Under the pieces are notes generated by a model. The model saw nothing but the letters and a program-made list of their open reading frames with translations. It was not told the origin of the DNA and ran no database searches. A stretch of DNA of 20,000 bases from an uncultured virus (IMG/VR IMGVR_UViG_3300033571_018919) (taxonomy: Duplodnaviria > Heunggongvirae > Uroviricota > Caudoviricetes). Each line of letters opens with the position of its first letter. The stretch's first letter is position 1. Both the position numbers and the translations under genes were made by a program. Positions 1 through 19,185 of the stretch are shown here, piece after piece. The stretch spans positions 107,169 to 127,168 of the IMG/VR virus record IMGVR_UViG_3300033571_018919, one strand, 5' to 3'.

Positions 1-431
1 ATTATAGTATTTTTTGATTGCATGTAGTAGGATTTATCTTCGATCATTAATAATTGACCATAAGCCGGATCATGTATAAAACAAGTATATCTAACAAGTT
101 TTCCTAATTTATTATATTCACTTAAATTGTCATCAACGTCTTGGTGCCATGGTGCATTTTTTCCCGGTCTTAGACAGCTTATCCAAGAACGGATAGGCTT
201 ACAATTTACAATTTGTGAAAATTTATTTTCAACCTCTTTATTGTAATGTAAATTTGGATAATAATTTATCCACTCAACTTGCACCGATGTATATTTTGCA
301 GATTCCCATAAAGTAGATATTTCATTAAATTCTCCCTTTTCGTTTTTATAAAAATCTAAACCAATCGTTCTTACCTCTCCTTGCATTTGAGATATTTCCA
401 AAACTACATCGTCCCAAAAACTGTCATTCAT
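1..431 (-). CDS. 2OG-Fe(II) oxygenase, Asp/Asn beta-hydroxylase-like (3' end runs off the window)
   Basis: Manually translated from ATG at 431: MNDSFWDDVVLEISQMQGEV...RSWISCLRPGKNAPWHQDVDD...VRYTCFIHDPAYGQLLMIED...; HxD motif in typical cupin context; start overlaps the stop of the upstream radical SAM gene; not in the ORF track because it is open at the edge. Confidence 0.75.
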   Translation of the reverse strand, partial: MNDSFWDDVVLEISQMQGEVRTIGLDFYKNEKGEFNEISTLWESAKYTSVQVEWINYYPNLHYNKEVENKFSQIVNCKPIRSWISCLRPGKNAPWHQDVDDNLSEYNKLGKLVRYTCFIHDPAYGQLLMIEDKSYYMQSKNTI

Positions 432-2427: not shown

Positions 2428-3079
2428 ATATCTTTTTGTGTATGTCTGTTAAATTAATTGGCCATTTTCCAAAATGTGTCAATCCTGATTTAAACAATAA
2501 CTCTACATTTACTTTACTTTCAATTGTCGCTTTGCTAAATCTGTCAGTATCAAATCCTATGATACTTTTTACATTTTCAAGTTCTACAAATGGGTTTTCT
2601 TTTTCAACGGTAGCATAAAAATCTATACAATGCATTTGACCATTAGTATCATAATAATGACTATGAGGATAAATCGTTGCTTTTAAATATCCTAAATTTA
2701 CTTGATCGTAAATTATTGTACTTATATCTTCGTACCAATTTTCGTTTAAATTTTTATGTTTAAAAATTAAATCATTGCAGGTATTACCATACCATTTTAT
2801 GAAAATTTTATTATCTTTAATATCTAATACTTCGGGTGCATATGGTTTTGATTCAAAAATTTTTAAATATTTACACTCACGTTCAAACATAAATTCAATA
2901 TGATTTTTATCATAACACAATCTTACCTGTTTAGATTGATATTCATTTGGGTAAGAAAAATTCATGCAAAAAACATTGCCCTCAGGATTAATTCTGGGTT
3001 CATAACACATTTGAGTTGTTGTTAGCTCACCAGTGGACTCATGAGTTTTATAATATAAATTCCAGTTTTCTAAATCCAT
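2420..3079 (-). CDS. Protein-kinase-like-fold protein (degenerate; APH/RIO-like)
   Basis: 219 aa; FERECKYL (alphaC Glu), YAPEVLD, and HCIDFY (DFG-like); canonical HxD catalytic loop not evident. Confidence 0.4.
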   Translation of the reverse strand: MDLENWNLYYKTHESTGELTTTQMCYEPRINPEGNVFCMNFSYPNEYQSKQVRLCYDKNHIEFMFERECKYLKIFESKPYAPEVLDIKDNKIFIKWYGNTCNDLIFKHKNLNENWYEDISTIIYDQVNLGYLKATIYPHSHYYDTNGQMHCIDFYATVEKENPFVELENVKSIIGFDTDRFSKATIESKVNVELLFKSGLTHFGKWPINLTDIHKKIYG

Positions 3080-3083
3080 CTGG

Positions 3084-3100
3084 TATTTATCGTGTAAATA
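3084..3100. promoter_or_regulatory. Back-to-back T4-type late promoter motifs (TAAATA on both strands)
   Basis: ATAAATA on - strand (3084-3090), 4 nt before ATG 3079; GTAAATA on + strand (3094-3100), 10 nt before ATG 3111. Confidence 0.6.
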
Positions 3101-3110
3101 GCTCTTAGAT

Positions 3111-4505
3111 ATGAAAGATAAAATTCAAAATTACATTAAACTAGTAGAAGAAAAAACAGGAACACCCACATTTTGCGCACTACCTTGGATACACTTAGCA
3201 ACTAGGCCTAACGGCGACGCAAGACTTTGCTGTGTAACGAACGCAAGCGGAGCCACAACCGGTGACCACACGGTTGGGCTTGTGAAAAAAGAAAATGGCA
3301 AGCCGGCTAATTTTGGAAAAGATTCTTTATTAGACGCATTTAATAATGATTATATGCGTAGTGTTAGAACAACTATGCTAGCAGGTAATATTCCAGCCAG
3401 TTGCACAAAATGCTTTGAAGAAGAAGAAAACGGCGTAGTAAGTAAAAGGTTATGGGAACTGTATGAATGGAATAGGGACGGGTTAGATTTCAATCAATTA
3501 ATTAGAGATACGATGGAAGATGGCACTGTACCTCCAATTATAAGGTATATGGATTTACGTTTAGGGCACACATGCAATTTAAAATGTGTAATGTGTAGTC
3601 CACATGATTCTAGTCGTTGGCTTCAAGATTATGACAAAGTAATGAATCGTACTACAAGTCAAGTTGTTAAGTTTCAATTAAACTTTGATGCCGAATCATT
3701 TAACAATGTTTGGTACGAAAAGCCTACATTTTGGGATGAAGTGTTTGAACAGATACCAAACATAACACAATTATATTTCGCAGGTGGCGAACCGCTGATG
3801 ATTAAAGAACATCGTAAATTTTTAGATGAAATAGTTAAGCGTGGTTATGCAAAAAACATTAGTTTACGATATAACAGTAACGGAATATTTGTTAATGAAG
3901 ATATTATAAACGTTTGGAAAGAGTTTAAACAAGTTAGATATGCTTTTAGTTTAGATGCTATTTTTGATAGAAATCATTATATTCGATATCCGGCTAATTG
4001 GGACGAAATTGAAAGTAGTTTGCGTCTAATGGATAATACACCTGAACATATTCATTGTGCGATTGCATGTGCTGTACAAGCACTTAACATTAAACACATA
4101 GTAGAATTTGCTAAATGGAAAATAAGCCAAAATTTTAAAAAAATCAATAAATTTAAATTAGATGAATATGAAACTGGTGGTGGAATAATTAACTTGCACT
4201 TATTGTACATCCCTACATTTTTGAGTGCTAGAATTTTACCAAAAGAGGATAAGTTAGAAATTAGAAAACTTATTTTAGATTTTAAACAATGGCTATGGAA
4301 AAATTACACACAGGATGATAATTTTTGGCACATTAATCCATATGGTTGGAAAAGATGGGAAGCTATTTTAAAATTCGTTGAAGCAGAAGATCATTCTCAT
4401 TTATTAGATGACTTTAAAGAATATATTAAAAATTTAGACGCTGTAAGAAATTTAAATTCTAGTCAAATTTTTCCTGAGCTTTCGCATTTATTTGATCAAG
4501 TATAA
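3111..4505 (+). CDS. Radical SAM protein with N-terminal Twitch/SPASM-like domain
   Basis: 464 aa; N-terminal CALPW...NGDARLCC...CTKC, then GHTCNLKCVMC and FAGGEP. Confidence 0.9.
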   Translation: MKDKIQNYIKLVEEKTGTPTFCALPWIHLATRPNGDARLCCVTNASGATTGDHTVGLVKKENGKPANFGKDSLLDAFNNDYMRSVRTTMLAGNIPASCTKCFEEEENGVVSKRLWELYEWNRDGLDFNQLIRDTMEDGTVPPIIRYMDLRLGHTCNLKCVMCSPHDSSRWLQDYDKVMNRTTSQVVKFQLNFDAESFNNVWYEKPTFWDEVFEQIPNITQLYFAGGEPLMIKEHRKFLDEIVKRGYAKNISLRYNSNGIFVNEDIINVWKEFKQVRYAFSLDAIFDRNHYIRYPANWDEIESSLRLMDNTPEHIHCAIACAVQALNIKHIVEFAKWKISQNFKKINKFKLDEYETGGGIINLHLLYIPTFLSARILPKEDKLEIRKLILDFKQWLWKNYTQDDNFWHINPYGWKRWEAILKFVEAEDHSHLLDDFKEYIKNLDAVRNLNSSQIFPELSHLFDQV

Positions 4506-5235
4506 CCTTCGCAAATTTTCTATGCCAATTAGGACTAGGACTAGCACCGTCTCTAGCCGTGTCATTGCCAACAGTTTTCTCATCAGTTGAATCCATATAC
4601 AAATTATACGGTACTGTATATAAGTCTACGTTATACACTTGACGGACTAACTCTACCATATGTGTATTTTTGTCTCTATTGTACTTGCAAGATGTTTTAT
4701 CAATGCCAAAAAAATACCCATCATACGGTGGTTTTGAATATGCAGTAACTGCCTCATGATGGTGGTCTAAGAACACTTCTCTACGCACATCTTGTGGCCA
4801 CATAATAATAACACTTAGTTTTTTACATTTTGGTAAAAAATATGGTACTGTGCAAGATACCATTCTAGCAATTGTATCTGGTGCAGCTTTAGCAATTGCT
4901 AAATTAAGTATTCTTATATTTGGCAAACTGCGTTCGATGACTCTAAGAAATATATCACGATCGGCTATTCCTGTTCCAGCTGTGGAACTATTCCCAAACC
5001 CCAAAAATAATTCATCATATTGATGATATGATTCTTCAAATTCTTTTTCTCTATAACCTAAAGAGTTTACAGTGTAAACAATATCATCACTATCAAATCT
5101 TGCATTTTTAGGATTATCAGGGCTCTCAGGAAATAGATTGCTTGCCCATTTAAATGTAGTGCCCGCTACTTTTTCCATAGGACTGGCTGCGATCCATGCG
5201 GGAGGAATATGAGGATAAAAATATTTATTAGCCAT
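4459..5235 (-). CDS. SGNH/GDSL hydrolase-like protein
   Basis: 258 aa; NSLGYR, FGNSSTAGTG (block I-like), ILNLAIAKA, C-terminal ARDGASPSPNWH. Confidence 0.55.
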   Translation of the reverse strand: MANKYFYPHIPPAWIAASPMEKVAGTTFKWASNLFPESPDNPKNARFDSDDIVYTVNSLGYREKEFEESYHQYDELFLGFGNSSTAGTGIADRDIFLRVIERSLPNIRILNLAIAKAAPDTIARMVSCTVPYFLPKCKKLSVIIMWPQDVRREVFLDHHHEAVTAYSKPPYDGYFFGIDKTSCKYNRDKNTHMVELVRQVYNVDLYTVPYNLYMDSTDEKTVGNDTARDGASPSPNWHRKFAKVILDQINAKAQEKFD

Positions 5236-6136
5236 TTTTTACCTTTGTTAATGGAATGTCAGACGCACAAGTACAAAAATCCCTAGTGCAAATTATAGGG
5301 TCTATGGGTAATTTAAAATCATCTTTGTATATATTTCCTAAACTACCTCCAACTCTACACGTAGCACGATGCACTTCACCGTCCCAGTTAATCATCAAAC
5401 TTTCTAAACCTGCGTTACAGCTCCAACCCTTATATTTATTAAAGTGTTTTTTAATAATATCATTGGCGTGCATTTTAATATTGTCATCAATAATACTATT
5501 GGGTTCAACAGTAGCATCTTTACTTAATATCCAATCTAAATCATTTTGATCGTAGCGCATATCATCAAATATATTATGATCATCATTTGTCCAACGAATT
5601 CTACGAATCGTGTACGGTACGTTGTAAACCTCTAACCTTTGAGTTGCGATTCTAACTTCTTTCATTTTATCAGGATGAGCCATAATATTAATCATACAAG
5701 GTTTGCGCATGCCTGGCTCTACATCACTTGCTGCGTAACGTAATATTGTGTCTAATACTCTTTTCCAGTCTTTTTCAAAATGCAGACTAAACACAATATG
5801 ATTTACTGGCAATCTAAAATAATAAATCGGACTTCTTGTTCCATTAGTTGTTACATTTATCCATTTAATGTCTTTGTGAACGCAATATTGAACCAATTCT
5901 TCAAAATCAGGATGTACTGTAGGTTCTCCGCCTGTAAAACTAAGTCGTATAGGCTTACCCAATATTACTAGTTTGTCTACCGTTGCCTTTAGTACCTCTA
6001 TGTCAGTGTGCGGGCTATTATTGTCATGTATACTACTAGGACAATAACTACAATCATAGTTACAACGTTTACCTAAGTTCCATTCAACCTTAATGCTGTC
6101 TTGATGATGCCAACGACTTGTTATTTTTTGCATCAT
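5228..6136 (-). CDS. Radical SAM protein with C-terminal Twitch domain
   Basis: 302 aa; CNYDCSYC, FTGGEP, TTNG; C-terminal CNAG...RATC...CTRDFCTC. Confidence 0.9.
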   Translation of the reverse strand: MMQKITSRWHHQDSIKVEWNLGKRCNYDCSYCPSSIHDNNSPHTDIEVLKATVDKLVILGKPIRLSFTGGEPTVHPDFEELVQYCVHKDIKWINVTTNGTRSPIYYFRLPVNHIVFSLHFEKDWKRVLDTILRYAASDVEPGMRKPCMINIMAHPDKMKEVRIATQRLEVYNVPYTIRRIRWTNDDHNIFDDMRYDQNDLDWILSKDATVEPNSIIDDNIKMHANDIIKKHFNKYKGWSCNAGLESLMINWDGEVHRATCRVGGSLGNIYKDDFKLPIDPIICTRDFCTCASDIPLTKVKNG

Positions 6137-7053
6137 AATATTGATCTTATTTGAGCATGGTCAATCGACATTTCGTGATATTTATTGTCATTATAAAACT
6201 TTAAATTTTTGACAGTTACATTATCACCTAAGATATCTTTATTCCACATCAATTTGCATAGATGATTTGGTATATACCAATCTCCAACATTATTGTGGTA
6301 ATCTAAAAGAGTTTGATCAATTATTAATTTACCTAATACATATCTACCTAATGATAGTTTGTTTAAGTCATGCAATGGGATATTAAATTTGCACTGTTTT
6401 GCCCACCGGTAAAAGAAAATTTCACTAGCCTTTGGAAAATTATATTCGGGTTTAAAAAATAACAAAGTTTCTGAACTAATTGTATTTTGGGCTGCTAACT
6501 CTGTATAATCATCATCGTCCGTAGACAAGTCTAACCAATCTTTGCCTAAAGTGCCGTAACCTAAAATTAAATCGCCCCACTTATTATTAGATTCTAGCCA
6601 TATTTTATATTCTTCTTTTATGGGTATGTATTGTTCACTATTTGCAGAATAGAATACTATATTCGAATTGTATTCAGAATATTTACTGTTAATCTTATTT
6701 TCTAAAACATGTATTAATTTATTCAATGTAGATAATGTATCGTCATTGGATTCGTTAGTTAATTTGACTAGTAAACTATGCGTTTTATTTAAATCAGTTT
6801 TGGTAAAATTTTTAGGAATCTCTTTAATATTAATTGTTGTACAGATGTCATTTGCTAATCTTAATACCTTGTCAGTTGGCGTATTCATTTGAATACCTGT
6901 ATTATATTCACTAGTTTCTAATTGTATCTGTTGCCATATATGCTGTACAGGATTATCAATGAGTTGATAATTCAATTTTAGATCACCTACACGACAACTT
7001 ATAGTTATTTCTAAGGTGTTGTAACCTTCTATATTTTGAAAAATCTCTTTCAT
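6133..7053 (-). CDS. Hypothetical protein
   Basis: 306-aa ORF with 4-nt start/stop overlaps with both neighbours; no recognised motif. Confidence 0.75.
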   Translation of the reverse strand: MKEIFQNIEGYNTLEITISCRVGDLKLNYQLIDNPVQHIWQQIQLETSEYNTGIQMNTPTDKVLRLANDICTTINIKEIPKNFTKTDLNKTHSLLVKLTNESNDDTLSTLNKLIHVLENKINSKYSEYNSNIVFYSANSEQYIPIKEEYKIWLESNNKWGDLILGYGTLGKDWLDLSTDDDDYTELAAQNTISSETLLFFKPEYNFPKASEIFFYRWAKQCKFNIPLHDLNKLSLGRYVLGKLIIDQTLLDYHNNVGDWYIPNHLCKLMWNKDILGDNVTVKNLKFYNDNKYHEMSIDHAQIRSIL

Positions 7054-8312
7054 ATGTAATCCTTAAATTCCGGAGTCACCTCTAAAAAACTCTGTTTTCT
7101 AGTATTATCCAATCGCATATTGAAATTAATTGTATCTACCCAAAGATGGCTCTCATCTTTTGCTGTTAGAAAGTTCAAAACGCCATTTATTTGATTTAAT
7201 GTCAACTCATATAACATCGGGTGTTTTTTAACCATTTTAAAATCTTGCAGTCTTTCAGATACAAGTTTAAGTTTAGAACTAGCAATGTTTTTTAATTGCT
7301 CAGGTAATACTTGTATACTTAAACAATTTGGATATCTAACCATATTAGTATAGAAAACAATTTCTAACTCATCTAAGAAATACTCAATCATTTCGTCTAA
7401 TATTAATATGTTAGATATTTGAACAGCTACAGCTCCTACTATTCGATTAATATTAGTAATACTTTGAACTTCTTTAATATTCTTAATTAATATATCCCAC
7501 TCAGCATTACCTCGAATGTATTCATAAGAATCTTTCATGCCATCTATACTGACATTTAATGCAACGCTTTTAAAATAAGGCCAATATTCATATATATTAC
7601 GATTTCCCTTACCTAACATTGTTAAATTTGTGGCGTATTTAATTTCAATTTGATGTCCATATGGTTTGAGCATATTTAATATGCGATAATGCTGCGGATC
7701 CATCAAAGGTTCACCTCCTGCAAACTCTACTCGCCTAAAGTATGGTAAATTTTTTTCTAAGCTAGACCACCAATTGGGATTGTCTTCAAATTTATCTAAT
7801 AGCGGCTTGTTTTCTAAATTATGATCTTCCACTAATTGATATATAACTTTACCGGATTCTTTATAAAAGTCTTTAATTTCTGCCCAGTCATTCCAGCTAG
7901 TGCTATCGCCGGGATGACACATCCTGCATTTTAAATTACATAGATTATTCAGCTTTAATTCCATAGTAGGAATTTTAAAAGGCATGGTCATTGTCGGATG
8001 AAGATCATCAAATGCATTTGGGTAAAGTTTTATACGGGCTTCTGGTATCTCACCCTTAATATGTCGTTGACGTAAACTTTCTACACCTTGGTCTTCTAAG
8101 CTGAAGCAAGGTTCGCATTCTGGTGGACGTTCTCCGGACAAAACTTGAGAACGTATTCTTCTCATCGTATGGTTATTCCATATTTCTTCTAAAGTATTAT
8201 CCTGTATATTACCAATTGGATGACTGCGGCAACACACTTGTATGGCGCCATCTTCTCTTGTTGCTAATCCGGTAAAAGGATGCATACAAAATGTTTTACT
8301 ATTACATTGCAT
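7050..8312 (-). CDS. Radical SAM protein with N-terminal Twitch/SPASM-like domain
   Basis: 420 aa; CMHPF...DGAIQVCC...CEPC, then CNLKCRMC and FAGGEP; paralogue of 3111-4505. Confidence 0.9.
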   Translation of the reverse strand: MQCNSKTFCMHPFTGLATREDGAIQVCCRSHPIGNIQDNTLEEIWNNHTMRRIRSQVLSGERPPECEPCFSLEDQGVESLRQRHIKGEIPEARIKLYPNAFDDLHPTMTMPFKIPTMELKLNNLCNLKCRMCHPGDSTSWNDWAEIKDFYKESGKVIYQLVEDHNLENKPLLDKFEDNPNWWSSLEKNLPYFRRVEFAGGEPLMDPQHYRILNMLKPYGHQIEIKYATNLTMLGKGNRNIYEYWPYFKSVALNVSIDGMKDSYEYIRGNAEWDILIKNIKEVQSITNINRIVGAVAVQISNILILDEMIEYFLDELEIVFYTNMVRYPNCLSIQVLPEQLKNIASSKLKLVSERLQDFKMVKKHPMLYELTLNQINGVLNFLTAKDESHLWVDTINFNMRLDNTRKQSFLEVTPEFKDYI

Positions 8313-9036
8313 TACTTATAGCCCAATTTCTTTCTTTACACCAAAAACATATATCACATGTAGGTACATGTTGATTAGGTATGTATGTTTCATAAGTTAT
8401 CCCTTCAAATTCACCCTCGCAACTTCTTGTTATAGAAAATAAGTCTAATAAGTTTCTTTTTCTATATTGTTGAATTACCCAATGTTTCTCAATAAATCTA
8501 AATGGGTGTATGGCATATACATTCATGTGCTTCATTAAACGCAGGTGTTGATTAAATTCAGTAGGATCAATATCTCTTTCTTTCATCCCATCAAAGTTTT
8601 TATTTTTTGGATTTCTCGTAACACCATTATAGTAAGCACTAATTTTATTGTGATAACAAACATATTCACTATACGCACGTATTTGAATATTATCTCCGCT
8701 TACTTTTTTACCATATTCGTCCATAAGCACAGGACCAGTTGCACCATATTCAATATCCGGTGCAATAAAATTTACGTGTCTAGTCCATTCGAACGTTGGA
8801 AACTTCTTTGTTAAGTATTCATATACATTTTTTGAATCATATTCTTGCCATGGTCTAGTTTTCCACATACGAATATGACTTATGATATGAATTTTCAGAT
8901 TAGGGTTTTCATTTACTGCAAGTGAACATAATAGATATGCTAATAGCGCCGAATCGGCACCACCACTTAAACTGACAGCGATACTAGGCCATTCTTTATC
9001 ATAGGGTATGTTAACGCCGTCTATGTTATATTCCAT
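8302..9036 (-). CDS. QueC-like PP-loop ATPase (7-cyano-7-deazaguanine synthase-like fold)
   Basis: 244 aa; SLSGGADS PP-loop; C-terminal TRSC...CDICFWCKER Zn-binding motif. Confidence 0.75.
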   Translation of the reverse strand: MEYNIDGVNIPYDKEWPSIAVSLSGGADSALLAYLLCSLAVNENPNLKIHIISHIRMWKTRPWQEYDSKNVYEYLTKKFPTFEWTRHVNFIAPDIEYGATGPVLMDEYGKKVSGDNIQIRAYSEYVCYHNKISAYYNGVTRNPKNKNFDGMKERDIDPTEFNQHLRLMKHMNVYAIHPFRFIEKHWVIQQYRKRNLLDLFSITRSCEGEFEGITYETYIPNQHVPTCDICFWCKERNWAISNAM

Positions 9037-9880
9037 TTTCTTCTAAATAACGAATTAAAGGTGAAACACCGACTGGCATGCCATTTTTTAATGCTAAATA
9101 AATGCTTTTTGTTTCAGTTAAATTAAAGTCCTTGCAAATTGTCTTATATCTATGTTCATGAGTATTCCAAAGGTAATCAGGTACTAGCTCATCTAAAAAA
9201 TATGAACCAATCATTACTAATGCCTTATTATTCATATGGAAATCGTTCATTATTGTAATACTATCGCTATCTTCATTTGACCATCGTAAACCTATTCTGT
9301 TCCAACCTAACCCTAATCCTTTACTTAAACTAATACCCACCGATTTAATATTTGGGTGATTAAAATCAAATTCTATGTCAGTACATGTTGTAACCCATGC
9401 TCCGTCGATATGTACATCAATTTTTTTCTCTGCACACTCACTGAGTATATCCTGCATATTATTATGTATAGATCCTATTTGTGGAAATGGCATAGCGATA
9501 ATTAAAGGCACACCATGTATTAAATTTTTTGGGGTAACAAGGTATGATAAGTTTAATCTACTGTGGTATCTGTAGTCATCAACTAGTGTTTGTACCCGAT
9601 GGTGCATATAAATGTTATCGATAAATTGAGTGCATCCGTTAATAATATCTATACGGTTAAATTTTTTCAATCCATATAACGAATTACGTTTAGATTCTGA
9701 TAACCAATTTACAAATCGAAACTTAAATCTATTATAAACCTCATTACTAATGTCTTTGTCCAAACATCCATGCAACACTTGTTGTATTAGAGTGTCAATT
9801 TTTTTATCTGTAAGTGGTTGTGGTCTTTCTATTTCTAAATACTTACTATCATAATCGGGTGCAATTTTAATTCTATCCAC
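9026..9880 (-). CDS. PLP-dependent enzyme (fold type I, aminotransferase-like)
   Basis: 284 aa, GTG start; VHIDGAW (PLP Asp) and SLSKGLGLGWNRIG (Schiff-base Lys followed by RxG). Confidence 0.7.
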   Translation of the reverse strand: MDRIKIAPDYDSKYLEIERPQPLTDKKIDTLIQQVLHGCLDKDISNEVYNRFKFRFVNWLSESKRNSLYGLKKFNRIDIINGCTQFIDNIYMHHRVQTLVDDYRYHSRLNLSYLVTPKNLIHGVPLIIAMPFPQIGSIHNNMQDILSECAEKKIDVHIDGAWVTTCTDIEFDFNHPNIKSVGISLSKGLGLGWNRIGLRWSNEDSDSITIMNDFHMNNKALVMIGSYFLDELVPDYLWNTHEHRYKTICKDFNLTETKSIYLALKNGMPVGVSPLIRYLEENGI

Positions 9881-9884
9881 TGAC

Positions 9885-9899
9885 TATTTACTATAAATA
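9885..9899. promoter_or_regulatory. Back-to-back T4-type late promoter motifs
   Basis: Exact TATAAATA at 9892-9899 (+), 4 nt before ATG 9904; TAAATA on - strand at 9885-9890, 4 nt before GTG 9880. Confidence 0.7.
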
Positions 9900-9903
9900 T
9901 TTC

Positions 9904-10572
9904 ATGCTTTCAAAATTGACTCTTTCTGTAGACGTAGATAGTTTAGTAAAACAAGTTAGTGAACTTAATTTTGGTAAAAGTTTATCCATTAATTATACCA
10001 CAGGAAAATTACTTAATGGTCCTTATCTAACGAAACCCGAATTTCTAAATACTCCTTTAGGAAATATTTTACAATCTATTGAAAATGTAGGTGAAGCTAG
10101 ATTATTAAAACTAGAAAGTGGAGAATCTTATACTGCACATTCTGACCCAGATGATAGAATACATGTTCCTATCATAACCAATCTATATTCTTATATTATG
10201 GATTTGGACAACAATAAAATGTATCATTTGCCTGCTGATGGATCAGTGTGGTATATGGACACAAGTGTTACACATGTGGCAGCAAACTTTGGAGGTAGAA
10301 CTAGAATACATTTAAACATTCGAGTGCTACTTCCTAAATTTAAATCCCCTGGCTACAAATTAACTGTTACAGGAGGCGATTATGATTGGAAACAGGAAGC
10401 ATATTTTACCTTAATGACTTTTTTTAATAAATCTATTAAAGAAAGAATTATTACAGGATTTGAAAAGGTAAACGAAAGAGAAGTTTTATTAAATTGTGAT
10501 CCAATCGTGCTTAATCCTTACATAAAAAAATTAGAAGATAAAGGGTTTAGTATATCTTTAAGCGCCACATAA
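9904..10572 (+). CDS. 2OG-Fe(II) oxygenase, Asp/Asn beta-hydroxylase-like, with C-terminal extension
   Basis: 222 aa; YTAHSDPDDRIHVPI (HxD), distal His in THVAANFG, RIHL. Confidence 0.8.
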   Translation: MLSKLTLSVDVDSLVKQVSELNFGKSLSINYTTGKLLNGPYLTKPEFLNTPLGNILQSIENVGEARLLKLESGESYTAHSDPDDRIHVPIITNLYSYIMDLDNNKMYHLPADGSVWYMDTSVTHVAANFGGRTRIHLNIRVLLPKFKSPGYKLTVTGGDYDWKQEAYFTLMTFFNKSIKERIITGFEKVNEREVLLNCDPIVLNPYIKKLEDKGFSISLSAT

Positions 10573-11622
10573 ATGACTTTCTACAATTCTGATTTAAAAA
10601 TTTTAGATATTGAGCCATCTTCTTTTTGTAATGCAAAATGTCCTCAATGCATGAGAGAATCACAAAATGGTTCCTATGATTTTTTTAATCAAGTGAATTT
10701 AACTGATACTTTTTTTGAGATTTTTTTTCCTAAACAAGTAGTAATAAATTTAGAAATAGTTTCATTTAGTGGAAATGTGGGGGAACCTACAATGAATAAA
10801 CATTTGATTGATATTATCAGGTGGTTTAGAAAACAAAACCCTAAAATTTATGTAGAAGTATACACGAACGGCAGCGTACAGAAACCAAAGTTTTGGAGCG
10901 AATTAGGAGAAGTTATTGGACATAATGGTAATGTGATATTTGCCATCGATGGACTAGAGGATACTAATCATATATACCGTATTGGAGTTAAATGGAACCT
11001 GCTAATGCAAAATGCAAAAGCATATATAGAATCTGGAGCGAAGGCAACATGGCAGTTTATACCTTTTCTACACAACGAGCATCAAGTTGAGTTAGCTAAA
11101 CAATTAAGTGCAGAAATGGGATTCGATAAATTTAAAATTAAAATATCACATAGAGATTTATTAAATCAACAGCAAAATGAAAAAACTAGAGTCTATCCAC
11201 CAAAAAATCCTATGTATACACATAGCGGAAATAAACTAGATTTTACTAATCTTGATGTTACTGAAAACTATTTAAATAGTCTAGATATTAAATGTTATGC
11301 CATAGAAAATAGTAACTTATATATTTCTGCTGAAGGTTTAGTGTTCCCTTGTTGTCACACGGCTAGCATTATACTTTTAGATGATAATATGGTACCTGAA
11401 CCGTATAGTTGGATTAGGAAAACAAAAAGTCAATTTAATCTTAATGAAATTAATTTACATAACAATACTCTAGAACAAATTTTAAAATCAGTTACCTTTA
11501 ATGAAATTAAAGAGTCATGGAACAAAGACATTAGCGTAGGAAAAAATGCAATATGTGCAGCGATTTGCGGCAAATGTAAAAATAACAAAAGTCTTATAGA
11601 AAATCTATTGCACCATGAATAA
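10573..11622 (+). CDS. Radical SAM protein with C-terminal Twitch domain
   Basis: 349 aa; CNAKCPQC, GNVGEP, TNG; C-terminal C...EGLVFPCC...CAAICG. Confidence 0.9.
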   Translation: MTFYNSDLKILDIEPSSFCNAKCPQCMRESQNGSYDFFNQVNLTDTFFEIFFPKQVVINLEIVSFSGNVGEPTMNKHLIDIIRWFRKQNPKIYVEVYTNGSVQKPKFWSELGEVIGHNGNVIFAIDGLEDTNHIYRIGVKWNLLMQNAKAYIESGAKATWQFIPFLHNEHQVELAKQLSAEMGFDKFKIKISHRDLLNQQQNEKTRVYPPKNPMYTHSGNKLDFTNLDVTENYLNSLDIKCYAIENSNLYISAEGLVFPCCHTASIILLDDNMVPEPYSWIRKTKSQFNLNEINLHNNTLEQILKSVTFNEIKESWNKDISVGKNAICAAICGKCKNNKSLIENLLHHE

Positions 11623-12553
11623 ACTAATAAAAATAGAAATAGCTAATCCTAATGCATTGCGTATTAATTTTGTAATGACACGTAGTTGCACCTACGAATG
11701 TAGATATTGTCCGGATGATCTACATTACGGTACACATAGAGATATAAACTTAAATGATTTAAAACTGTTTCTTAGTAGATTTACGGATAGAAATACGGCC
11801 GTTCAATTGACAGGTGGTGAATGCACTACTCATCCACAATTTGAGGAAGTTATAAAATTAATTAAAGACTTTAATTATAATGTACTAGTGGATTCTAACA
11901 GTGTTAGGACATTGCGCTTCTACGATGAAGTAAAACATTTAGTAGATAATTGGTGCATAACATTACATCCTAGTCAACATAAATTAGATTTAGAAAAATT
12001 AAAATTATTATCACAACATTCTTTTCTAGTGATTTATGTTATGATGGATCCTAATTATTGGGAGATATCATTAGACTGGTTTGATCAAATATCAAAATTA
12101 AAAGATTTAAAAGTAACACCAATCCGAGTTATGAACAATTGGGGAGGTGCAAATTTTCACGCTAATTACAGTGACGAACAATTAGAGTATTTGTCAAAGG
12201 CAGAATCTAAATGGCTTTTTACTGTTGAACGAGAAACAGAATTAAGAAAAACTCACATGTGGTTAGCGGATACAGAATCTATAGCAACAGACACTACTGG
12301 AAACAGGGTTACACTAGATCCATTTAAAATGATACGCACAGGCACAAACAATTTTTATGGTTGGCAGTGTAAAGCCGGTAATGAATCAATATGCATATTT
12401 GATGACGGCAAAGCCATATGGGCAAATTGTGGGATTAAAAAATTTAACCATTACTTAGAGTTGACTCCTGAAATAATGGCTGAACCACTGAAATGTAATT
12501 TTTTAGCTTGTTCATGTGCTACTGATATTCGAGCCTCTAAGTCAAAGAATTAG
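11615..12553 (+). CDS. Radical SAM protein with C-terminal Twitch domain
   Basis: 312 aa; CTYECRYC, LTGGE; C-terminal CKAG...ANC...CNFLACSC. Confidence 0.9.
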   Translation: MNKLIKIEIANPNALRINFVMTRSCTYECRYCPDDLHYGTHRDINLNDLKLFLSRFTDRNTAVQLTGGECTTHPQFEEVIKLIKDFNYNVLVDSNSVRTLRFYDEVKHLVDNWCITLHPSQHKLDLEKLKLLSQHSFLVIYVMMDPNYWEISLDWFDQISKLKDLKVTPIRVMNNWGGANFHANYSDEQLEYLSKAESKWLFTVERETELRKTHMWLADTESIATDTTGNRVTLDPFKMIRTGTNNFYGWQCKAGNESICIFDDGKAIWANCGIKKFNHYLELTPEIMAEPLKCNFLACSCATDIRASKSKN

Positions 12554-13622
12554 TTTCTATCCACTGATCATTGGGTTGACTTATATCTACATTTTTAAAT
12601 TCACCGCATACTCTGGCACAGGTAATTAATTTTTCTTCATTCCATTTTTTGTGCCAAATATTTTGCCAAATTTCAGAATCAATCACATTTTTTATTCCGT
12701 TTAGTGCATTAAGTTTTTCTACACCACCAAAATCTTCAATTAGTTTAGTGTATTGATTTTTTATATCTTCGCTTACATTATGATTGATATATTCAGGATC
12801 ATAGTATGTATAGGGTATGGAACTTACCCAACAACAAGGAAGTATGGTTTTGTATGCGTCAATGTAGATTTCTTTAAGATTTAAAACATGGCAGTTAATT
12901 TTTGCCTCAGCTATAAGTTGTTTATAAGAATTAATTACCTCTTTTGGCATAAACTTAATAGTAGTTTCAGTTGGGGGTTCAATTGTATGTGTATAGTTTC
13001 CTTCTTTATCTACAACATCGTATTTTGGTTCTACTAAAAAGCGTGAACTATTTTTTACAACAAATTTTGAGAAACCTAAACTTTTGGCTACTACCCTACA
13101 TTCTTCTGTTTGATGCTCATTGTGTTTAAATTTTATAAATGTCCATTCGGCGATTCCCCCTGCATCAATAAAAGCTTTTGCATTTTTTATTACAGTATTG
13201 TAATTAGTGCCTATCCTATATAATGAATGCGTATCAACTAATCCGTCAAGTGCGAAATGAACACAGTGATCTACAGGAAGTGCCTTAGCTAAATCTATCC
13301 ACCATGACGGCTTTCTAGCTCCGCCATTGGTGTGTATGGCAATTCGTACATTTGGATTCACATGTTTGATGTACACACACATTTCTATTAGGTCATCATG
13401 CAGCATAGGATCACCAAAATTGCCGCAAAAATATATACATCGGACTAAGTTTAAAATTTCAGGAGAGATGATCTTTTTAAACTCAATTAGTGTCCACTGA
13501 GTTAATTTTAAATATGGATTAGGCAACCCACCGTGATGATTTCTGGCACACATGGGGCACCTTGCCTGACAATTATTAGTTAGCTCTATGTGAATAGATT
13601 TTAATTCATTAAATTTAAACAT
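12537..13622 (-). CDS. Radical SAM protein with C-terminal Twitch domain
   Basis: 361 aa; CQARCPMC, GNFGDP, HTNG; C-terminal C...LPCC...CARVCG; paralogue of 10573-11622. Confidence 0.9.
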   Translation of the reverse strand: MFKFNELKSIHIELTNNCQARCPMCARNHHGGLPNPYLKLTQWTLIEFKKIISPEILNLVRCIYFCGNFGDPMLHDDLIEMCVYIKHVNPNVRIAIHTNGGARKPSWWIDLAKALPVDHCVHFALDGLVDTHSLYRIGTNYNTVIKNAKAFIDAGGIAEWTFIKFKHNEHQTEECRVVAKSLGFSKFVVKNSSRFLVEPKYDVVDKEGNYTHTIEPPTETTIKFMPKEVINSYKQLIAEAKINCHVLNLKEIYIDAYKTILPCCWVSSIPYTYYDPEYINHNVSEDIKNQYTKLIEDFGGVEKLNALNGIKNVIDSEIWQNIWHKKWNEEKLITCARVCGEFKNVDISQPNDQWIETNSLT

Positions 13623-14235
13623 TCGCCTTTCCTATAATCATGTATCTGTCATACAATGGCAATTCAAGTTTTTTTGCATTATAAACATGTAGTTTGCATT
13701 GATCTATAAAATGAGTTAAACTATTGGCAATTCGTATGTGTTCATCAATTTTGTAATTATTACTTTGTACTACAATCAAACTATTGTGCGGTAAACAAGT
13801 TAACCATGTATCATATTGTTCTTGTGTAATGTGTTCACAACTAGTGTTGATAATAATATCTGCATTACTGTGAATTGCACACATATCCGATGTAATTGCT
13901 GTAAATCTTCCTTGCATTTCTTCTTTTTTATTCATAGTTCTAGCTATTTCTTCACAACTAGGATCTATATCGATGGTACGAATATACTTAATAGAAATTT
14001 TACTTTGAAAAAGAAAACTAGCAAGAGTGCCGACCCACCCGCCGTGTATGTCAATACTGACAGGAAAATTTAAACTTTTATCTTGTTCTGAACTGATAAA
14101 ACTTTCTAAAGTTTCAATTAACCACTCTTTGCTTTGTATCTGTCCTCGCCAAAAGGCGTCTAGTGTACGTTTGGGGTCTTTGCTCTCACGAATGGCACAC
14201 ATCCAATAATGCAAGTGTTCAGTGTCTATATTCAT
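13615..14235 (-). CDS. Class I SAM-dependent methyltransferase-like protein
   Basis: IHGGWVG glycine-rich motif I, IRTIDID motif II, IINTSCEH; ATG at 14235 preferred over the TTG at 14241. Confidence 0.7.
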   Translation of the reverse strand: MNIDTEHLHYWMCAIRESKDPKRTLDAFWRGQIQSKEWLIETLESFISSEQDKSLNFPVSIDIHGGWVGTLASFLFQSKISIKYIRTIDIDPSCEEIARTMNKKEEMQGRFTAITSDMCAIHSNADIIINTSCEHITQEQYDTWLTCLPHNSLIVVQSNNYKIDEHIRIANSLTHFIDQCKLHVYNAKKLELPLYDRYMIIGKANV

Positions 14236-14241
14236 GTTCAA

Positions 14242-15255
14242 CTATTCTGTTAACTTGCATTTTGGTATTTTGCTATCTGCCGAACTCACACAGCTAGGGG
14301 TTATACACTTTTTTGGCGAGCCAAATAATTTAAAACCATCAGTTAATGTTCCTAATGGTTGGTCGTGGCAACTATAACTTCTTTTAATTTCATCTCCCCG
14401 TATTATAACACTTTGATACCCTGAATTGCAATACCAACCTTTAAAATTATTAAAACCAAAAGAATTAAATCTTTCTGCTTGGTCAAACAAGTACTCATTG
14501 TTGTCTTGGTCATACAAGCTTATTTGATATATTTCTTGCTCCTTTGCCTTTTGGGGGAACCCATTTTGCATTATTGCAATCATTTCGTTTGTGTATCCAT
14601 CTACAATTGCACTGGCGGTGTCGTTACTCTGTGGCTTTAGTGTGACATTGATTCCTTTATCATGAAATCTATTACACCTATCATACAACTCATAAAATTG
14701 ATCTGGTACCATAACTTGATTAATGGTTACGTGAACATTTTCTCCCATTAAGAATAAACATTTTTCTGCAAATTCATTTTCATTCGCAAACTCACTATGA
14801 TAACTTGCAGTAATTGATTTGCGTTGAAATAGTTCAGTAGACATGCACCAATTTCCCCACCATTTTTTGCTTGGACTTAAATTAGTAGTCATGTGTATAC
14901 TTTGGTATGGGGTGATACCATCTTCAAGGTATTTTAATAAAGATAATAAATGTTTATAAGCAGTTGGTTCTCCGCCACTAAAGGACCAATGAAATTTATT
15001 AAATCTATTTTGCCTTGCTTGAGTTTTTATTGAATCTATTGTTTGAATGTATTTTTGAAAATCCGAATAGTCAGGCGTTTGGCTATTAGCATAAGGCCAA
15101 CAATAGCTGCACTTATAATTACAGAACCTACCAAGAATCCAACTAATATTAAAGACATCATCTTTTATTAAAGTTTGTTGACCAAATTTTACTATTTTCT
15201 CAAATGGAATTTTTGTAAAATCGATCATACTGTTCTTTGAGCCAGTCGTAGTCAT
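14242..15255 (-). CDS. Radical SAM protein with C-terminal Twitch-like domain
   Basis: CNYKCSYC, FSGGEP; C-terminal CNSG...YSC...CITPSCVS; true start may be the ATG at 15228 (MIDFTKIPF). Confidence 0.9.
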   Translation of the reverse strand: MTTTGSKNSMIDFTKIPFEKIVKFGQQTLIKDDVFNISWILGRFCNYKCSYCWPYANSQTPDYSDFQKYIQTIDSIKTQARQNRFNKFHWSFSGGEPTAYKHLLSLLKYLEDGITPYQSIHMTTNLSPSKKWWGNWCMSTELFQRKSITASYHSEFANENEFAEKCLFLMGENVHVTINQVMVPDQFYELYDRCNRFHDKGINVTLKPQSNDTASAIVDGYTNEMIAIMQNGFPQKAKEQEIYQISLYDQDNNEYLFDQAERFNSFGFNNFKGWYCNSGYQSVIIRGDEIKRSYSCHDQPLGTLTDGFKLFGSPKKCITPSCVSSADSKIPKCKLTE

Positions 15256-16801
15256 TTATCCTTTTTAATACTTCTGTATCATTCTTGTTAGCCATCGCAA
15301 ATTCTTTGCCTGCAATAGCTCCGTCAATTGCAAATTCGCCGTACTTCTTATCTTTGCCTACTGTACACCAAACGTTTAATCTGTCGTTAGTTTCAATTGA
15401 GTTTTGTCTATCAATTATTTGACTTGCTAACTTTACGCATTCTCTAAATGCACTTCGCCATGTATTGAATGGATCCGTATTAAAATTAGTATAATTACTT
15501 AGTTTAATTACAGGTTCGTATAAATTACTTATACTTGTAGTCATATCAGGTTTATTAGTTTGCATATGTAACGTGTAGAATCTGGGTAATAGCTTTACAC
15601 CACCGTACCCATATATTAACCCATTAATTGGATTAACGCTGCGCCAAACTCTAACTTTGGCTTGTTCATAAAAAGGTACACTAAAATCAAAAGAAAAATC
15701 ATCAACTAATGATGCATCGGCATCTACTACCCAAAAATAATCTGTTTTTGCAATCTTAGCAGCAGCAATGTGTGCTTGATGTATCCCTGCTATGCCGTCA
15801 ATTCTTTTTGCTTTTGGATATTTTTTAAGTACTAGTTCAAAATTTTTTTCAGCGTTTGGTTCACCGTAGCTTATGAATATTACGTCAAATTCACCTGGGT
15901 ATTTGTATTTTATAAATGTTTCAGGACTTCTTCTGCTTACAGGAATTTCTTCTTTGTATTCTTTGCTAGCATTTGGTTGAAATACATCTACAATTCTTCC
16001 ATCATTTGTTATAGAACTTAACGATCTACCTAATCGATTACATTCAAACAATATATCATCTTTATATAATTCATACTGAGCTTCAAATAGGTTATCTAAA
16101 TGTTCAAAATCTTTGATATCCCCTATATTAAAATTTTGTTTTGACAATGCGATATATGCTGCCTGCCTGGCGCCCAATATAGCCCAAACTCCATTTTCAA
16201 CGTCTGTGCCTAAATGCATCCATCTCCAAAGTCTTTCATAATTTCTCCAGTTGATTTCTGAAATTTCTTTTACGAATATATCATTTTCCATACATAGTTT
16301 GATGCCTTCCCTAAACCCACTTCTCCAAGCTTGCTTTGGACTTGAATTTATGTTTACATCACTTAAACTACGATTTAATTGTAGATAATTTTTAAAATCA
16401 AAATCAACACTATTAGGATTGGAGCTGTTTTCATGGGTACGCATAGTTTTCAGTTTTTCTACTGGCCAAACTTTGATACCACCGTTACCATACGTATTTC
16501 CATTAATGTTGTTTTTACCACTAAAGCTTATTACACTGTCGGATACGTTTACGGTATCGACTAGATTCAGTTCAATTTGCAATAAATTATCGTGTACGTA
16601 GTTATCACCATCAACAATAATAACGTGACTATGATTTTCAACAAGATTTGCAACAGCTTTGTGTGCAGTGTCGCTTCCCTTTATATTGTCAACACGCAGT
16701 GCATTTGGACAAATTTCTAGTAAGCGTAAGTAATTGGCTTCTTTGTTTTCCTCTTGATAACTTAGAAAAACGACTGGATAATTTTGAATTTTGAATAGCA
16801 T
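15200..16801 (-). CDS. Tandem-duplicated GT-A (GT2-like) glycosyltransferase-like protein
   Basis: 533 aa; two homologous halves, each with FxSYxE, a DxD motif (IIVDGDN / WVVDADA), NGxxYGxGGxK and WRSxFRExxKL. Confidence 0.65.
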   Translation of the reverse strand: MLFKIQNYPVVFLSYQEENKEANYLRLLEICPNALRVDNIKGSDTAHKAVANLVENHSHVIIVDGDNYVHDNLLQIELNLVDTVNVSDSVISFSGKNNINGNTYGNGGIKVWPVEKLKTMRTHENSSNPNSVDFDFKNYLQLNRSLSDVNINSSPKQAWRSGFREGIKLCMENDIFVKEISEINWRNYERLWRWMHLGTDVENGVWAILGARQAAYIALSKQNFNIGDIKDFEHLDNLFEAQYELYKDDILFECNRLGRSLSSITNDGRIVDVFQPNASKEYKEEIPVSRRSPETFIKYKYPGEFDVIFISYGEPNAEKNFELVLKKYPKAKRIDGIAGIHQAHIAAAKIAKTDYFWVVDADASLVDDFSFDFSVPFYEQAKVRVWRSVNPINGLIYGYGGVKLLPRFYTLHMQTNKPDMTTSISNLYEPVIKLSNYTNFNTDPFNTWRSAFRECVKLASQIIDRQNSIETNDRLNVWCTVGKDKKYGEFAIDGAIAGKEFAMANKNDTEVLKRINDYDWLKEQYDRFYKNSI

Positions 16802-16837: not shown

Positions 16838-16866
16838 TTGACTATATAGATATCTTATTGTACAAT
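16838..16866 (+). promoter_or_regulatory. Sigma70-type promoter upstream of the leader ORF / tRNA array
   Basis: TTGACT-17 nt-TACAAT. Confidence 0.65.
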
Positions 16867-16923
16867 GTGTACATTGAAAATGCGTAAAAAAGCTAGATAA
16901 TTTAAGCTTTTATTATGCCAGGA

Positions 16924-16930
16924 CTAAATA
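16924..16930 (+). promoter_or_regulatory. T4-type late promoter motif for the leader ORF
   Basis: CTAAATA 8 nt upstream of ATG 16939. Confidence 0.5.
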
Positions 16931-16938
16931 ACTTTACT

Positions 16939-17079
16939 ATGATGAACTTTACTTGTAAAAATACGATGCTGCATGAAGGGCTATGGTCAGTTTTAGCCAT
17001 AGAGTCTTTTGCGCCTGTATATCCAACAAGTATCCGTGGCACAAATGATAATCAAAGCGGCTACCGGGGAACGGAATAA
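16939..17079 (+). CDS. 46-aa putative leader (attenuator) peptide MMNFTCKNTMLHEGLWSVLAIESFAPVYPTSIRGTNDNQSGYRGTE
   Basis: Manually translated ORF between promoter motifs and an intrinsic terminator; contains all 20 amino acids and 37 distinct codons. Confidence 0.6.
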   Translation: MMNFTCKNTMLHEGLWSVLAIESFAPVYPTSIRGTNDNQSGYRGTE

Positions 17080-17106
17080 ACAAGTAACATTATAAAAGTT
17101 TATACG

Positions 17107-17139
17107 AACCCTGGAAATTTAAAATCTCCAGGGTTTTTT
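17107..17139 (+). terminator. Rho-independent terminator (candidate attenuator)
   Basis: AACCCTGGA / TCCAGGGTT 9-bp stem followed by a T-tract. Confidence 0.85.
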
Positions 17140-17158
17140 GTTGCAGGAATACAACACT

Positions 17159-17317
17159 ATGATTGACAAAATAACAGAAAATGATATAAAATTCGGTTCG
17201 CTTGATAACAAAAAGTGGTATGAAGAACATGTGTTATCAAAAGAACAACTAGATTTGTTAATAAAAAACAAATTTGATAGGTATAAAAATTATCAAATAG
17301 ACAAGGTTGATTGCTAA
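17159..17317 (+). CDS. 52-aa hypothetical protein (MIDKITENDIKFGSLDNKKWYEEHVLSKEQLDLLIKNKFDRYKNYQIDKVDC)
   Basis: Manual translation; AGGA RBS-like sequence ~10 nt upstream. Confidence 0.45.
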   Translation: MIDKITENDIKFGSLDNKKWYEEHVLSKEQLDLLIKNKFDRYKNYQIDKVDC

Positions 17318-17327
17318 TTTTTATACA

Positions 17328-17574
17328 AGTGTTTAGAGAGAACGAGGCTCTTAGGTTCACTATAAAAAATCTTTAACGGGCGGACAGTATACATGAAGTA
17401 TATGGCGAAAACATATATAGTAAGACTACTGGTTGGAACGTCGATTCTAACATAATGCGAGATAACTCGCATTATTCTAAAGCATACTCAGTGATATAGG
17501 GTACAGTCGGGATGCCGTAATGGATCCTTTTAGATGAGCGGTTCAACTCCGTTAATAGTATGTTTCAGAATAAT
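17328..17574 (+). ncRNA. Putative structured non-coding RNA with tRNA-like T-arm
   Basis: Consecutive hairpins (17328-17361, 17385-17431, 17432-17451, 17452-17475) and an 18-bp stem 17471-17488/17557-17574 enclosing AGCGG-TTCAACT-CCGTT. Confidence 0.45.
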
Positions 17575-17583
17575 AATTACAAT

Positions 17584-17659
17584 TGGGGATTCGCCAAGTT
17601 GGTAAGGCACCGGATTTTGATTCCGGCATTCGGTGGTTCGAGTCCATCATCCCCAGCCA
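17584..17659 (+). tRNA. tRNA-Gln(TTG)
   Basis: Cloverleaf; anticodon arm CCGGA-TTTTGAT-TCCGG; GGTTCGAGTCC; encoded CCA. Confidence 0.95.
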
Positions 17660-17661
17660 TT

Positions 17662-17738
17662 GCCCCAATAACTCAGTGGACTAGAGTACTGTGCTACGAA
17701 CGCAGGAGTCGGAGGTTCGAATCCTTCTTGGGGTACCA
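17662..17738 (+). tRNA. tRNA-Arg(ACG)
   Basis: Anticodon arm CTGTG-CTACGAA-CGCAG; GGTTCGAATCC; CCA. Confidence 0.95.
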
Positions 17739-17744
17739 TTCTTG

Positions 17745-17773
17745 TTGACTAAATACGTTTGCTTGTTTAATAT
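17745..17773 (+). promoter_or_regulatory. Putative promoter of pqqA
   Basis: TTGACT-17 nt-TAATAT, with an overlapping CTAAATA late-type motif at 17749-17755. Confidence 0.5.
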
Positions 17774-17798
17774 GAGCGTTCTTATACAGGAGGTAAAC

Positions 17799-17870
17799 AT
17801 GTGGACTAAACCTACAGCACAGGATATGCGTTTTGGTTTTGAAATCACTATGTATATTGCAAATCGCTAA
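17799..17870 (+). CDS. pqqA: Pyrroloquinoline quinone precursor peptide PqqA (MWTKPTAQDMRFGFEITMYIANR)
   Basis: 23-aa ORF matching the PqqA consensus (W-x-x-P...R-x-G-x-E-x-T-x-Y; ExxxY core); AGGAGG RBS at 17788-17793; terminator downstream. Confidence 0.93.
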   Translation: MWTKPTAQDMRFGFEITMYIANR

Positions 17871-17888
17871 TATACAACATTGATGGGC

Positions 17889-17915
17889 AAAAAGGTAGCT
17901 ATGCTACCTTTTTTT
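17889..17915 (+). terminator. Rho-independent terminator after pqqA
   Basis: AAAAAGGTAGC-TAT-GCTACCTTTTTTT. Confidence 0.8.
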
Positions 17916-17917
17916 AC

Positions 17918-17993
17918 GGTAGAGTAGCATAGCGGCTAATGCGCCACCTTCATACGGTGTTTATCGTCAGTTCGAGTCTGACCTCTACTACCA
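17918..17993 (+). tRNA. tRNA with CAT anticodon (elongator Met or Ile2/lysidine)
   Basis: Acceptor GGTAGAG/CTCTACT, anticodon loop TTCATAC, TTCGAGT T-loop, CCA; lacks initiator GGG/CCC anticodon stem. Confidence 0.88.
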
Positions 17994-18007: not shown

Positions 18008-18160
18008 ATGCCAATGTATGAAACTACTGTTAGAACGCCGAGCGGCGAAGAAAAGAAAAGAATTTATGCGGATACACCGCAAGAGGCTAAAAAACTTTTT
18101 GAACAATTGTATGGTGGGCCTAGAGCAGTTCCATATATACCAAAAATAGTACCAAGTTAG
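18008..18160 (+). CDS. 50-aa hypothetical protein (MPMYETTVRTPSGEEKKRIYADTPQEAKKLFEQLYGGPRAVPYIPKIVPS)
   Basis: AAAGGA RBS just upstream of ATG 18008; fills the gap between two tRNAs; the track's longer start (17939) lies inside a tRNA. Confidence 0.7.
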   Translation: MPMYETTVRTPSGEEKKRIYADTPQEAKKLFEQLYGGPRAVPYIPKIVPS

Positions 18161-18624: not shown

Positions 18625-19185
18625 ATGTCTGTCTTAGCTTTGGATATCACAGGAATCCCTAGACAATGGGTTTCAAACGATATTGCAATCACTTACCATG
18701 CAAAAGAGATGGTAGCATGGAGTATTGGTGAAATTGTTGCACGTTATCGTGGTGGCATTCAAAATAATGGCAAAATGAGTTATCTTGAAACTCCTAGTAT
18801 TATTGCCATTAAAGGACATGGTTTTGATCCTAGCAAACATGGCAAAGTTGCACTTACTAATAAAACATTGTTTGGGCGTGACCGTCATGTATGTGCATAC
18901 TGCGGCGGACATTTTTCGAATTCAAACAACTTAAGTCGTGACCATATTTTACCTAAAAGCAGAGGTGGTGCAAACAATTGGATGAATGTGGTTACTGCAT
19001 GTACTCCATGCAATAACAAGAAAGACAACAAAACATTGAAAGAGGCACGAATGGAATTGCTTTATGTTCCCTATGAGCCAAATTTCTTTGAAGCAATGAT
19101 TTTGCAAAATAGAAATATTCTCGCTGATCAAATGGAATACTTAATGACAGGTGTACCAAAACATAGCAGAATTTTGTTATCATAA
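18625..19185 (+). CDS. HNH endonuclease (McrA/HNH_5-like)
   Basis: RDRHVCAYCG, SRDHILPKSRGG, NVVTACTPCNNKK; AGGAG RBS. Confidence 0.9.
   Translation: MSVLALDITGIPRQWVSNDIAITYHAKEMVAWSIGEIVARYRGGIQNNGKMSYLETPSIIAIKGHGFDPSKHGKVALTNKTLFGRDRHVCAYCGGHFSNSNNLSRDHILPKSRGGANNWMNVVTACTPCNNKKDNKTLKEARMELLYVPYEPNFFEAMILQNRNILADQMEYLMTGVPKHSRILLS

Follow-up and report, generated by a model that had tools for sequence, protein, structure and literature searches.

A phage gene for the PQQ precursor peptide

Why would a phage carry pqqA, the gene of the PQQ precursor peptide, apart from the enzymes that turn the peptide into PQQ? The question arises from the stretch analyzed here (the window; 20,000 nucleotides), which forms the end of a 127,168-bp linear viral record that is ~25% complete. 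The contig encodes portal, head protease, major head protein, SbcC/D and RNR, and its capsid is 64-68% identical to those of 284-470-kb cultured jumbo phages (e.g., Vibrio 2.275.O and Pseudomonas PA5oct); it is a fragment of a T4-related jumbo phage. pqqA is therefore a host-type metabolic gene within a bona fide viral genome, on one contiguous record with portal, protease, capsid and RNR, and the viral context assumed by an earlier reading of the sequence alone (the sequence-only reading) is upheld over the cellular contig considered there as an alternative. The features of the locus are as follows:

17662..17738, + strand: tRNA-Arg(ACG), upstream neighbor of pqqA (ARAGORN)
17745..17773, + strand: candidate sigma-70-like promoter TTGACT-17-TAATAT, weak (9/12 match)
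17749..17755, + strand: candidate T4-type late promoter CTAAATA (resembles the phage's late-promoter motif)
17788..17793, + strand: Shine-Dalgarno AGGAGG, 5 nt before the ATG (from the sequence)
17799..17870, + strand: pqqA, 23-aa PQQ precursor peptide with the motif E15-x-x-x-Y19 (PF08042 and TIGR02107, both over cut-off)
17889..17915, + strand: intrinsic-terminator-like hairpin with U-run (-13.2 kcal/mol, z -2.86)
17918..17993, + strand: tRNA with CAT anticodon (called Met), downstream neighbor of pqqA (ARAGORN)

The 23-codon ORF (17799-17870, +) encodes the peptide MWTKPTAQDMRFGFEITMYIANR, which scored 39.4 bits against Pfam PF08042 (E 5.6e-10; cut-off 21.1) and 39.5 bits against TIGR02107 (E 3.3e-10; cut-off 20), so the ORF is not a chance one; PHROGs returned no family for the 23-aa peptide at E 1e-5. 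The peptide has the 22-25 residues of a PqqA and an intact Glu-x-x-x-Tyr (E15/Y19), and its translation start is served by AGGAGG. Thus the assignment made in the sequence-only reading passed the HMM check suggested with it, and the ExxxY motif, ribosome-binding site (RBS) and terminator described there are all present. The terminator is an 11-bp hairpin (17889-17913) whose 3' arm ends in a run of seven T (17909-17915), and its stability was equalled in 4 of 200 shuffles; it was missed by a consensus terminator scan, probably owing to pairing between the A-run and the T-run. Its GGTAGC/GCTACC stem recurs after pqqA in six related viral loci (L189, L164, L145, L235, L199 and L139). Only one PqqA match was found on the contig.

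A promoter-like sequence had also been noted for the cassette. The sequence TTGACT-17-TAATAT does exist, but it is a weak candidate only, since it matches at 9/12 positions and is one of 23 sigma-70-like sites, against 11.5 expected from shuffles; the closest relatives do not show it in this form. It overlaps CTAAATA, which like ATAAATA is a candidate T4-type late promoter by the T4 late consensus. Of the 86 contig ORFs, 16 have ATAAATA in the 100 nt ahead of them, although the contig has just 30 such sites, and five have CTAAATA there (23 sites), which makes the late promoter an equally good candidate. TAAATA is similarly placed in the closest relatives, and upstream of pqqA in same-subtype loci it is mildly enriched (10/93 vs 4.7 shuffled); a late-promoter rule for viral pqqA in general is unsupported by this count and by a second one (6/86 vs 7.1). 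Before many contig ORFs, ATAAATA is only ~10 nt ahead of the start codon, so that the transcripts would be nearly leaderless. By eye, many viral pqqA genes also have a short inverted repeat in their 5' leader, immediately ahead of the RBS, which may form a stabilizing 5' hairpin (window 17757-17781; L189, L164, L145, L139, L154 and L169).

Cellular contamination or misassembly would account for one GenBank "phage" match, an Acinetobacter pqqABCDE operon, yet for the present locus its probability is close to nil: the contig has hallmark phage genes, the codons are AT-rich, the locus has a syntenic relative (L189), and the start of pqqA is spanned by contigs of two runs. The contig of a possible source run covers 17603-17974 with zero differences and spans the cassette, and over 17541-17852 a contig of another lake-water run shows 6 differences and 1 gap. 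The long stretch 16850-17574 of the window contains no ORF of 70 aa and no ARAGORN tRNA, is ~70% identical to the matching region of L189 and could hold a structured RNA; substitutions in the lake-water contigs cluster at 17499-17535.

The cassette stands apart from pqqB-E

PqqE and PqqD cross-link the Glu and Tyr of PqqA, and PqqB and PqqC complete PQQ, as described in PMC9851590 and PMC7936290. On the 127-kb contig, tblastn found no PqqB or PqqC, and neither PqqD nor a PQQ alcohol dehydrogenase was found; the best PqqE score was 29.4 bits against a cut-off of 381, from the core motif only. Thus the stand-alone state that had been noted for the window extends to the contig, which lacks a complete biosynthetic cluster (pqqB, pqqC, pqqD and pqqE); the contig being ~25% complete, other pqq genes could sit on the missing part. 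Matches to PqqB-E were likewise zero in two partly overlapping sets of at least 120 and at least 119 viral loci (flanks of 0.3-5 kb). Among the matches listed for bacteria, pqqB was beside pqqA in 70 of 80 long loci and all four of pqqB-E were present in 62. We also examined 42 whole viral records bearing pqqA, mostly the longest carriers: PqqD was found in none, PqqE over the cut-off in none, and 28 wholly lacked a PqqE-like match, while a PQQ dehydrogenase was present in one of the 42 and in none of the six near-complete ones.

These results bear on whether PqqA could be acted on by the radical SAM cluster of the phage itself, which would yield PQQ or another modified peptide without the host. 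Eight radical SAM genes do lie in the window, within 18 kb upstream of pqqA, and such a link is implied in PMC7678222. On the other hand, the PqqE score and the lack of PqqD on the contig, the 28 of 42 records without any PqqE-like match, and the presence of pqqA in 35-44-kb cultured phages too make this explanation highly improbable. As PqqE itself, the phage enzymes are ruled out by the PqqE score and by two of them being N-terminal-twitch enzymes (NF033640).

The radical SAM genes form a dense cluster (window 424-16801) that continues upstream in the contig, includes one B12-dependent member and also holds an Asp/Asn hydroxylase-like gene and a possible glycosyltransferase. Elsewhere in the genome an IscU gene (G000:C1:91101-91979, L396), 77-85% identical to Burkholderiales IscU, adjoins an IscA-like gene; it may supply Fe-S clusters to the radical SAM cluster.

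One 72-kb viral record (G356, the record of L058) has, at L418:7990-16790, a full PQQ alcohol dehydrogenase (607.9 bits; cut-off 480) next to pqqA, as well as formate dehydrogenase alpha (884.8 bits; cut-off 666), a quinoprotein-associated SoxYZ-like carrier, a CsgG-like gene and tRNAs. Viral by its IMG/VR listing, this stretch appears to be a small methylotrophy gene set, and as such it would extend the supply logic proposed below for pqqA.

Viral pqqA appears to be under selection

Among the matches listed, W2, P5, A7 and R11, which are outside the search pattern, were invariant in all 89 distinct viral genes of the EITMYIANR subtype, and codons 2-11 of these genes had a pS of 0.42 versus a pN of 0.17. 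GC3 was 0.31 in viral pqqA versus 0.67 in 86 bacterial genes, and 0.18 in the present copy. An RBS-like word preceded 173 of the 179 distinct viral pqqA genes among the matches listed (a count without shuffle control), and a terminator-like hairpin followed 75 of them, versus 0.0 in shuffles. Judged by these sequence comparisons, viral pqqA is maintained by selection. Carriers of the EITMYIANR subtype fall into two distant phage groups, with capsids 78-93% and 32-37% identical to the present one (15 of 41 records matched).

Could pqqA nevertheless be a neutral hitchhiker, i.e. a small host gene caught in a recombination-prone tRNA array, from which the phage gains nothing? Its place among the tRNAs varies between close relatives, and the tRNA arrays here also contain an HNH gene and small ORFs, as such an origin would allow. 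We disfavor this explanation as improbable, for four reasons: i) residues are invariant despite varied codons; ii) GC3 is phage-like; iii) RBS and terminator are kept; iv) pqqA occurs in both phage groups, mostly away from tRNAs. The array around the present copy comprises 11 tRNAs, and the insertion between tRNA-Arg and the CAT tRNA is as the sequence-only reading had it, but it does not define the gene: among the matches listed, a tRNA lay within 500 nt of pqqA in 12 of 80 long same-subtype viral loci and anywhere in the locus in 29, so viral pqqA is not a "tRNA-array gene" by rule. In close relatives the cassette retains its hairpin and occupies other points of the array. The array also holds a conserved 50-aa ORF of no known family (18008-18160) and the HNH endonuclease gene (18625-19185), both common to related phages.

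Spread of viral pqqA and earlier reports

IMG/VR was scanned with two DNA patterns, one broad and one for EITMYIANR only, whose counts are lower bounds and samples. The broad pattern matched at least 120 stretches, with 57 distinct peptides among the matches listed, of which nine of 120 were of the EITMYIANR type; the EITMYIANR-only pattern matched at least 119 viral contigs, and the exact peptide MWTKPTAQDMRFGFEITMYIANR was in 8 of 119 loci among the matches listed. From the common order of the contigs that both scans list, the number of pqqA-bearing contigs in IMG/VR may be roughly extrapolated to more than 1,500.

A tblastn search of 50,697 GenBank phage records gave 12 matches: nine records of six cultured Methylophilales/Methylophilaceae phages (Melnitz, Venkman, MEP301, MEP401, MEP402 and P19250A), one spring-water podovirus and two Acinetobacter records. 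Of the latter, "Acinetobacter phage MD-2021a" (L007, CAKLQF020000010.1) is bacterial chromosome with a pqqABCDE operon, and on the basis of this one both were dropped as cellular. No feature is annotated under the pqqA match in five of the nine cultured-phage records, and the feature annotated there in a Melnitz record, as in the podovirus, lies on the other strand. MEP431-434, HIM624-A, pHIMB624-A, Venkman EXVC038S, MG-MTP1 and RSA-MFP1, all in the NCBI taxonomy, were not among the matches, though the collection may not include them; that every cultured Methylophilaceae phage has pqqA is thus not borne out.

Viral pqqA is already published, and the concept itself is in print. The check on earlier reports that had been advised led to PMC7678222 (Coutinho et al. 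2020), where PqqA is described in the T4-like Lake Baikal population VP_266 and a role as auxiliary metabolic gene (AMG) is proposed. The same paper states that P19250A lacks these genes, which for pqqA is contradicted by the match in P19250A. PMC13188868 lists a single viral pqqA, whose 2.5-kb contig has no supported host. Word searches of the accessible text of the papers on Melnitz, MEP401/402 and MEP301 met no mention of a phage pqqA, and a literature search outside subscription journals and preprint supplements found no paper on host-matched pqqA subtypes or on pqqA in cultured phages.

The peptide subtype points to a host outside Methylophilaceae

The phage PqqA ends in EITMYIANR, and its type is thus not that of the cultured Methylophilaceae phages, whose tail is EVTMYVMNK-like, as in a 1.3-Mb genome with three copies; multi-copy genomes with this latter tail are presumably Methylophilaceae. 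EITMYIANR was absent from seven multi-copy VMNK/VCNR genomes. In GTDB genomes the pattern DMRFGFEITMYIANR had at least 120 matches, and the 80 titled ones listed were mainly from Comamonadaceae, Limnobacter and Rhodocyclaceae, with some lacking a family assignment and none from Methylophilaceae; the betaproteobacterial source suspected earlier from the tail is thus supported. Among the matches listed, the Ala7 variant, which is fixed in the viral set, numbered 46 (26 Comamonadaceae, 8 Rhodocyclaceae and 12 other or unassigned), and all 14 Limnobacter copies had Phe7 and none Ala7. In a sample of 301 Burkholderiales genomes (denominators include the unpublished genome G028), 79 had pqqA and seven the EITMYIANR tail, each of the seven with one pqqA match. 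PQQ alcohol dehydrogenase was over the cut-off in 28 of 37 genomes with this tail.

Other markers gave less resolution. The phage tRNAs had best matches of ~85-93% that were much alike across all 46 test genomes, and they carried no host signal there or in a comparison with other phages; the best IscU matches were in Limnobacter and two other genomes rather than Comamonadaceae (77-85% across Burkholderiales, in a comparison of ingroup genomes only), and neither marker separated the Burkholderiales families. Moreover, a jumbo phage with 79% capsid identity has the intermediate peptide ...EITMYVMNR, so peptide types can drift inside phage lineages. The host order is likely Burkholderiales, and by the peptide the host is probably a non-Methylophilaceae member of it; a freshwater host from Comamonadaceae or Rhodocyclaceae rather than Methylophilaceae, an assignment that rests on a 23-aa peptide, has a chance of about one half or a little better. 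A third viral PqqA type, RLGFE(I/V)TMYFK.. (L011, L018, L044, L052, L060 and L380), matches a 2.1-Mb Burkholderiales genome and suggests a further host group.

On a wider proposal we are evenly divided: phages would have acquired pqqA repeatedly, each time from another Burkholderiales lineage, and retained the host peptide type, which would make the 23-mer a host barcode; the present phage would infect abundant freshwater Comamonadaceae/Rhodocyclaceae (Rhodoferax, Limnohabitans, Polaromonas); viral PQQ boosting would extend far past the methylotroph specialists; and supply of a RiPP precursor only would be a widespread hidden class of auxiliary genes.

A proposed role in precursor supply

The reading that we prefer, and hold to be quite probable as a whole, is that of a host-derived pqqA cassette with which the phage would top up the consumable PQQ precursor for PqqB-E of a Burkholderiales host; expression, gain in flux, benefit to the phage and host family are the parts of it that we infer. 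The gene, long resident in phage genomes, would have been retained as a small self-contained cassette, and would act in four steps: i) during infection the phage would produce additional PqqA; ii) host PqqD/PqqE would cross-link its Glu15 and Tyr19; iii) host PqqB/PqqC would complete PQQ; iv) PQQ would go to the PQQ-dependent alcohol/methanol dehydrogenases in the host periplasm and thereby support the energy supply of the host. As PqqA is consumed with each PQQ while the enzymes are reused, 72 bp would buy a limiting consumable, and as the seven sampled Burkholderiales genomes with the EITMYIANR tail have one pqqA match each, a phage copy would double the dose.

Reports on bacteria point both ways. 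Orphan pqqA copies were highly expressed at the peak of PQQ synthesis in a producer strain, according to PMC9851590, and overexpression of pqqAB is reported to raise PQQ by 29% (PMC7936290). In the same report, however, the whole operon gave eightfold PQQ and pqqB was ranked above pqqA, so pqqA need not be limiting.

A real PqqA might alternatively be selected for a non-energy role, with PQQ acting as redox buffer or radical scavenger, or with the peptide itself engaging host PqqD/PqqE as a decoy. The conservation data fit this equally, the phage carries IscU and an IscA-like gene besides its many Fe-S radical SAM enzymes, and PMC11118758 ties a PqqA family to co-expression with defense systems in marine bacteria. 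We nevertheless consider such a role unlikely: the intact ExxxY and the 20 of 22 residues as in bacterial PqqA lead one to expect normal processing, a decoy would be expected to lose its reactive residues, and pqqA beside PQQ alcohol dehydrogenase and formate dehydrogenase in G356 points to catabolic flux.

If precursor supply holds, a 72-bp gene missed by gene callers would enable many phages of aquatic habitats to keep up alcohol/methanol oxidation in the cells they infect. Since pqqA is unannotated in cultured phage-host pairs, including P19250A, the idea is directly testable. The EITMYIANR subtype, which suggests hosts outside Methylophilaceae, would be a cheap marker for host prediction; with the concept in print, the remaining value of the present copy is its host-type signal and a ready test in cultured phages.

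Comparison with known systems

The nearest published counterpart is Baikal VP_266, which, compared by its description in PMC7678222, is likewise a freshwater T4-like phage (35% GC) with pqqA proposed as an AMG. Its sister VP_139 is described with radical SAM genes, RNR and cytidylyltransferase, gene kinds seen or suggested here as well. VP_266 differs in its predicted host, Methylophilaceae, and in the methanol dehydrogenase reported for it, whereas the present peptide matches other Burkholderiales and the fragment has no PQQ dehydrogenase. The cultured Methylophilaceae phages share a stand-alone pqqA of 23-24 codons with RBS (in Melnitz ~10 nt ahead of tRNA-Leu), but they are other phage types with other hosts, and their PqqA is 65-77% identical to the present one with an EVTMY(V/I)(M/L) tail.

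Among bacteria, the PqqA of a Rhodoferax MAG (L267) is identical to the phage peptide at 20 of 22 residues, including the last 15. Comamonadaceae/Rhodocyclaceae PqqA mostly heads pqqABCDE, while the viral gene stands by itself, is AT-rich and carries a terminator of its own. The orphan pqqA copies of methylotrophs described in PMC9851590 are chromosomal and the present copy is viral; yet, as in the phage, the precursor gene lies apart from the enzymes, which fits the dosage of a consumable peptide.
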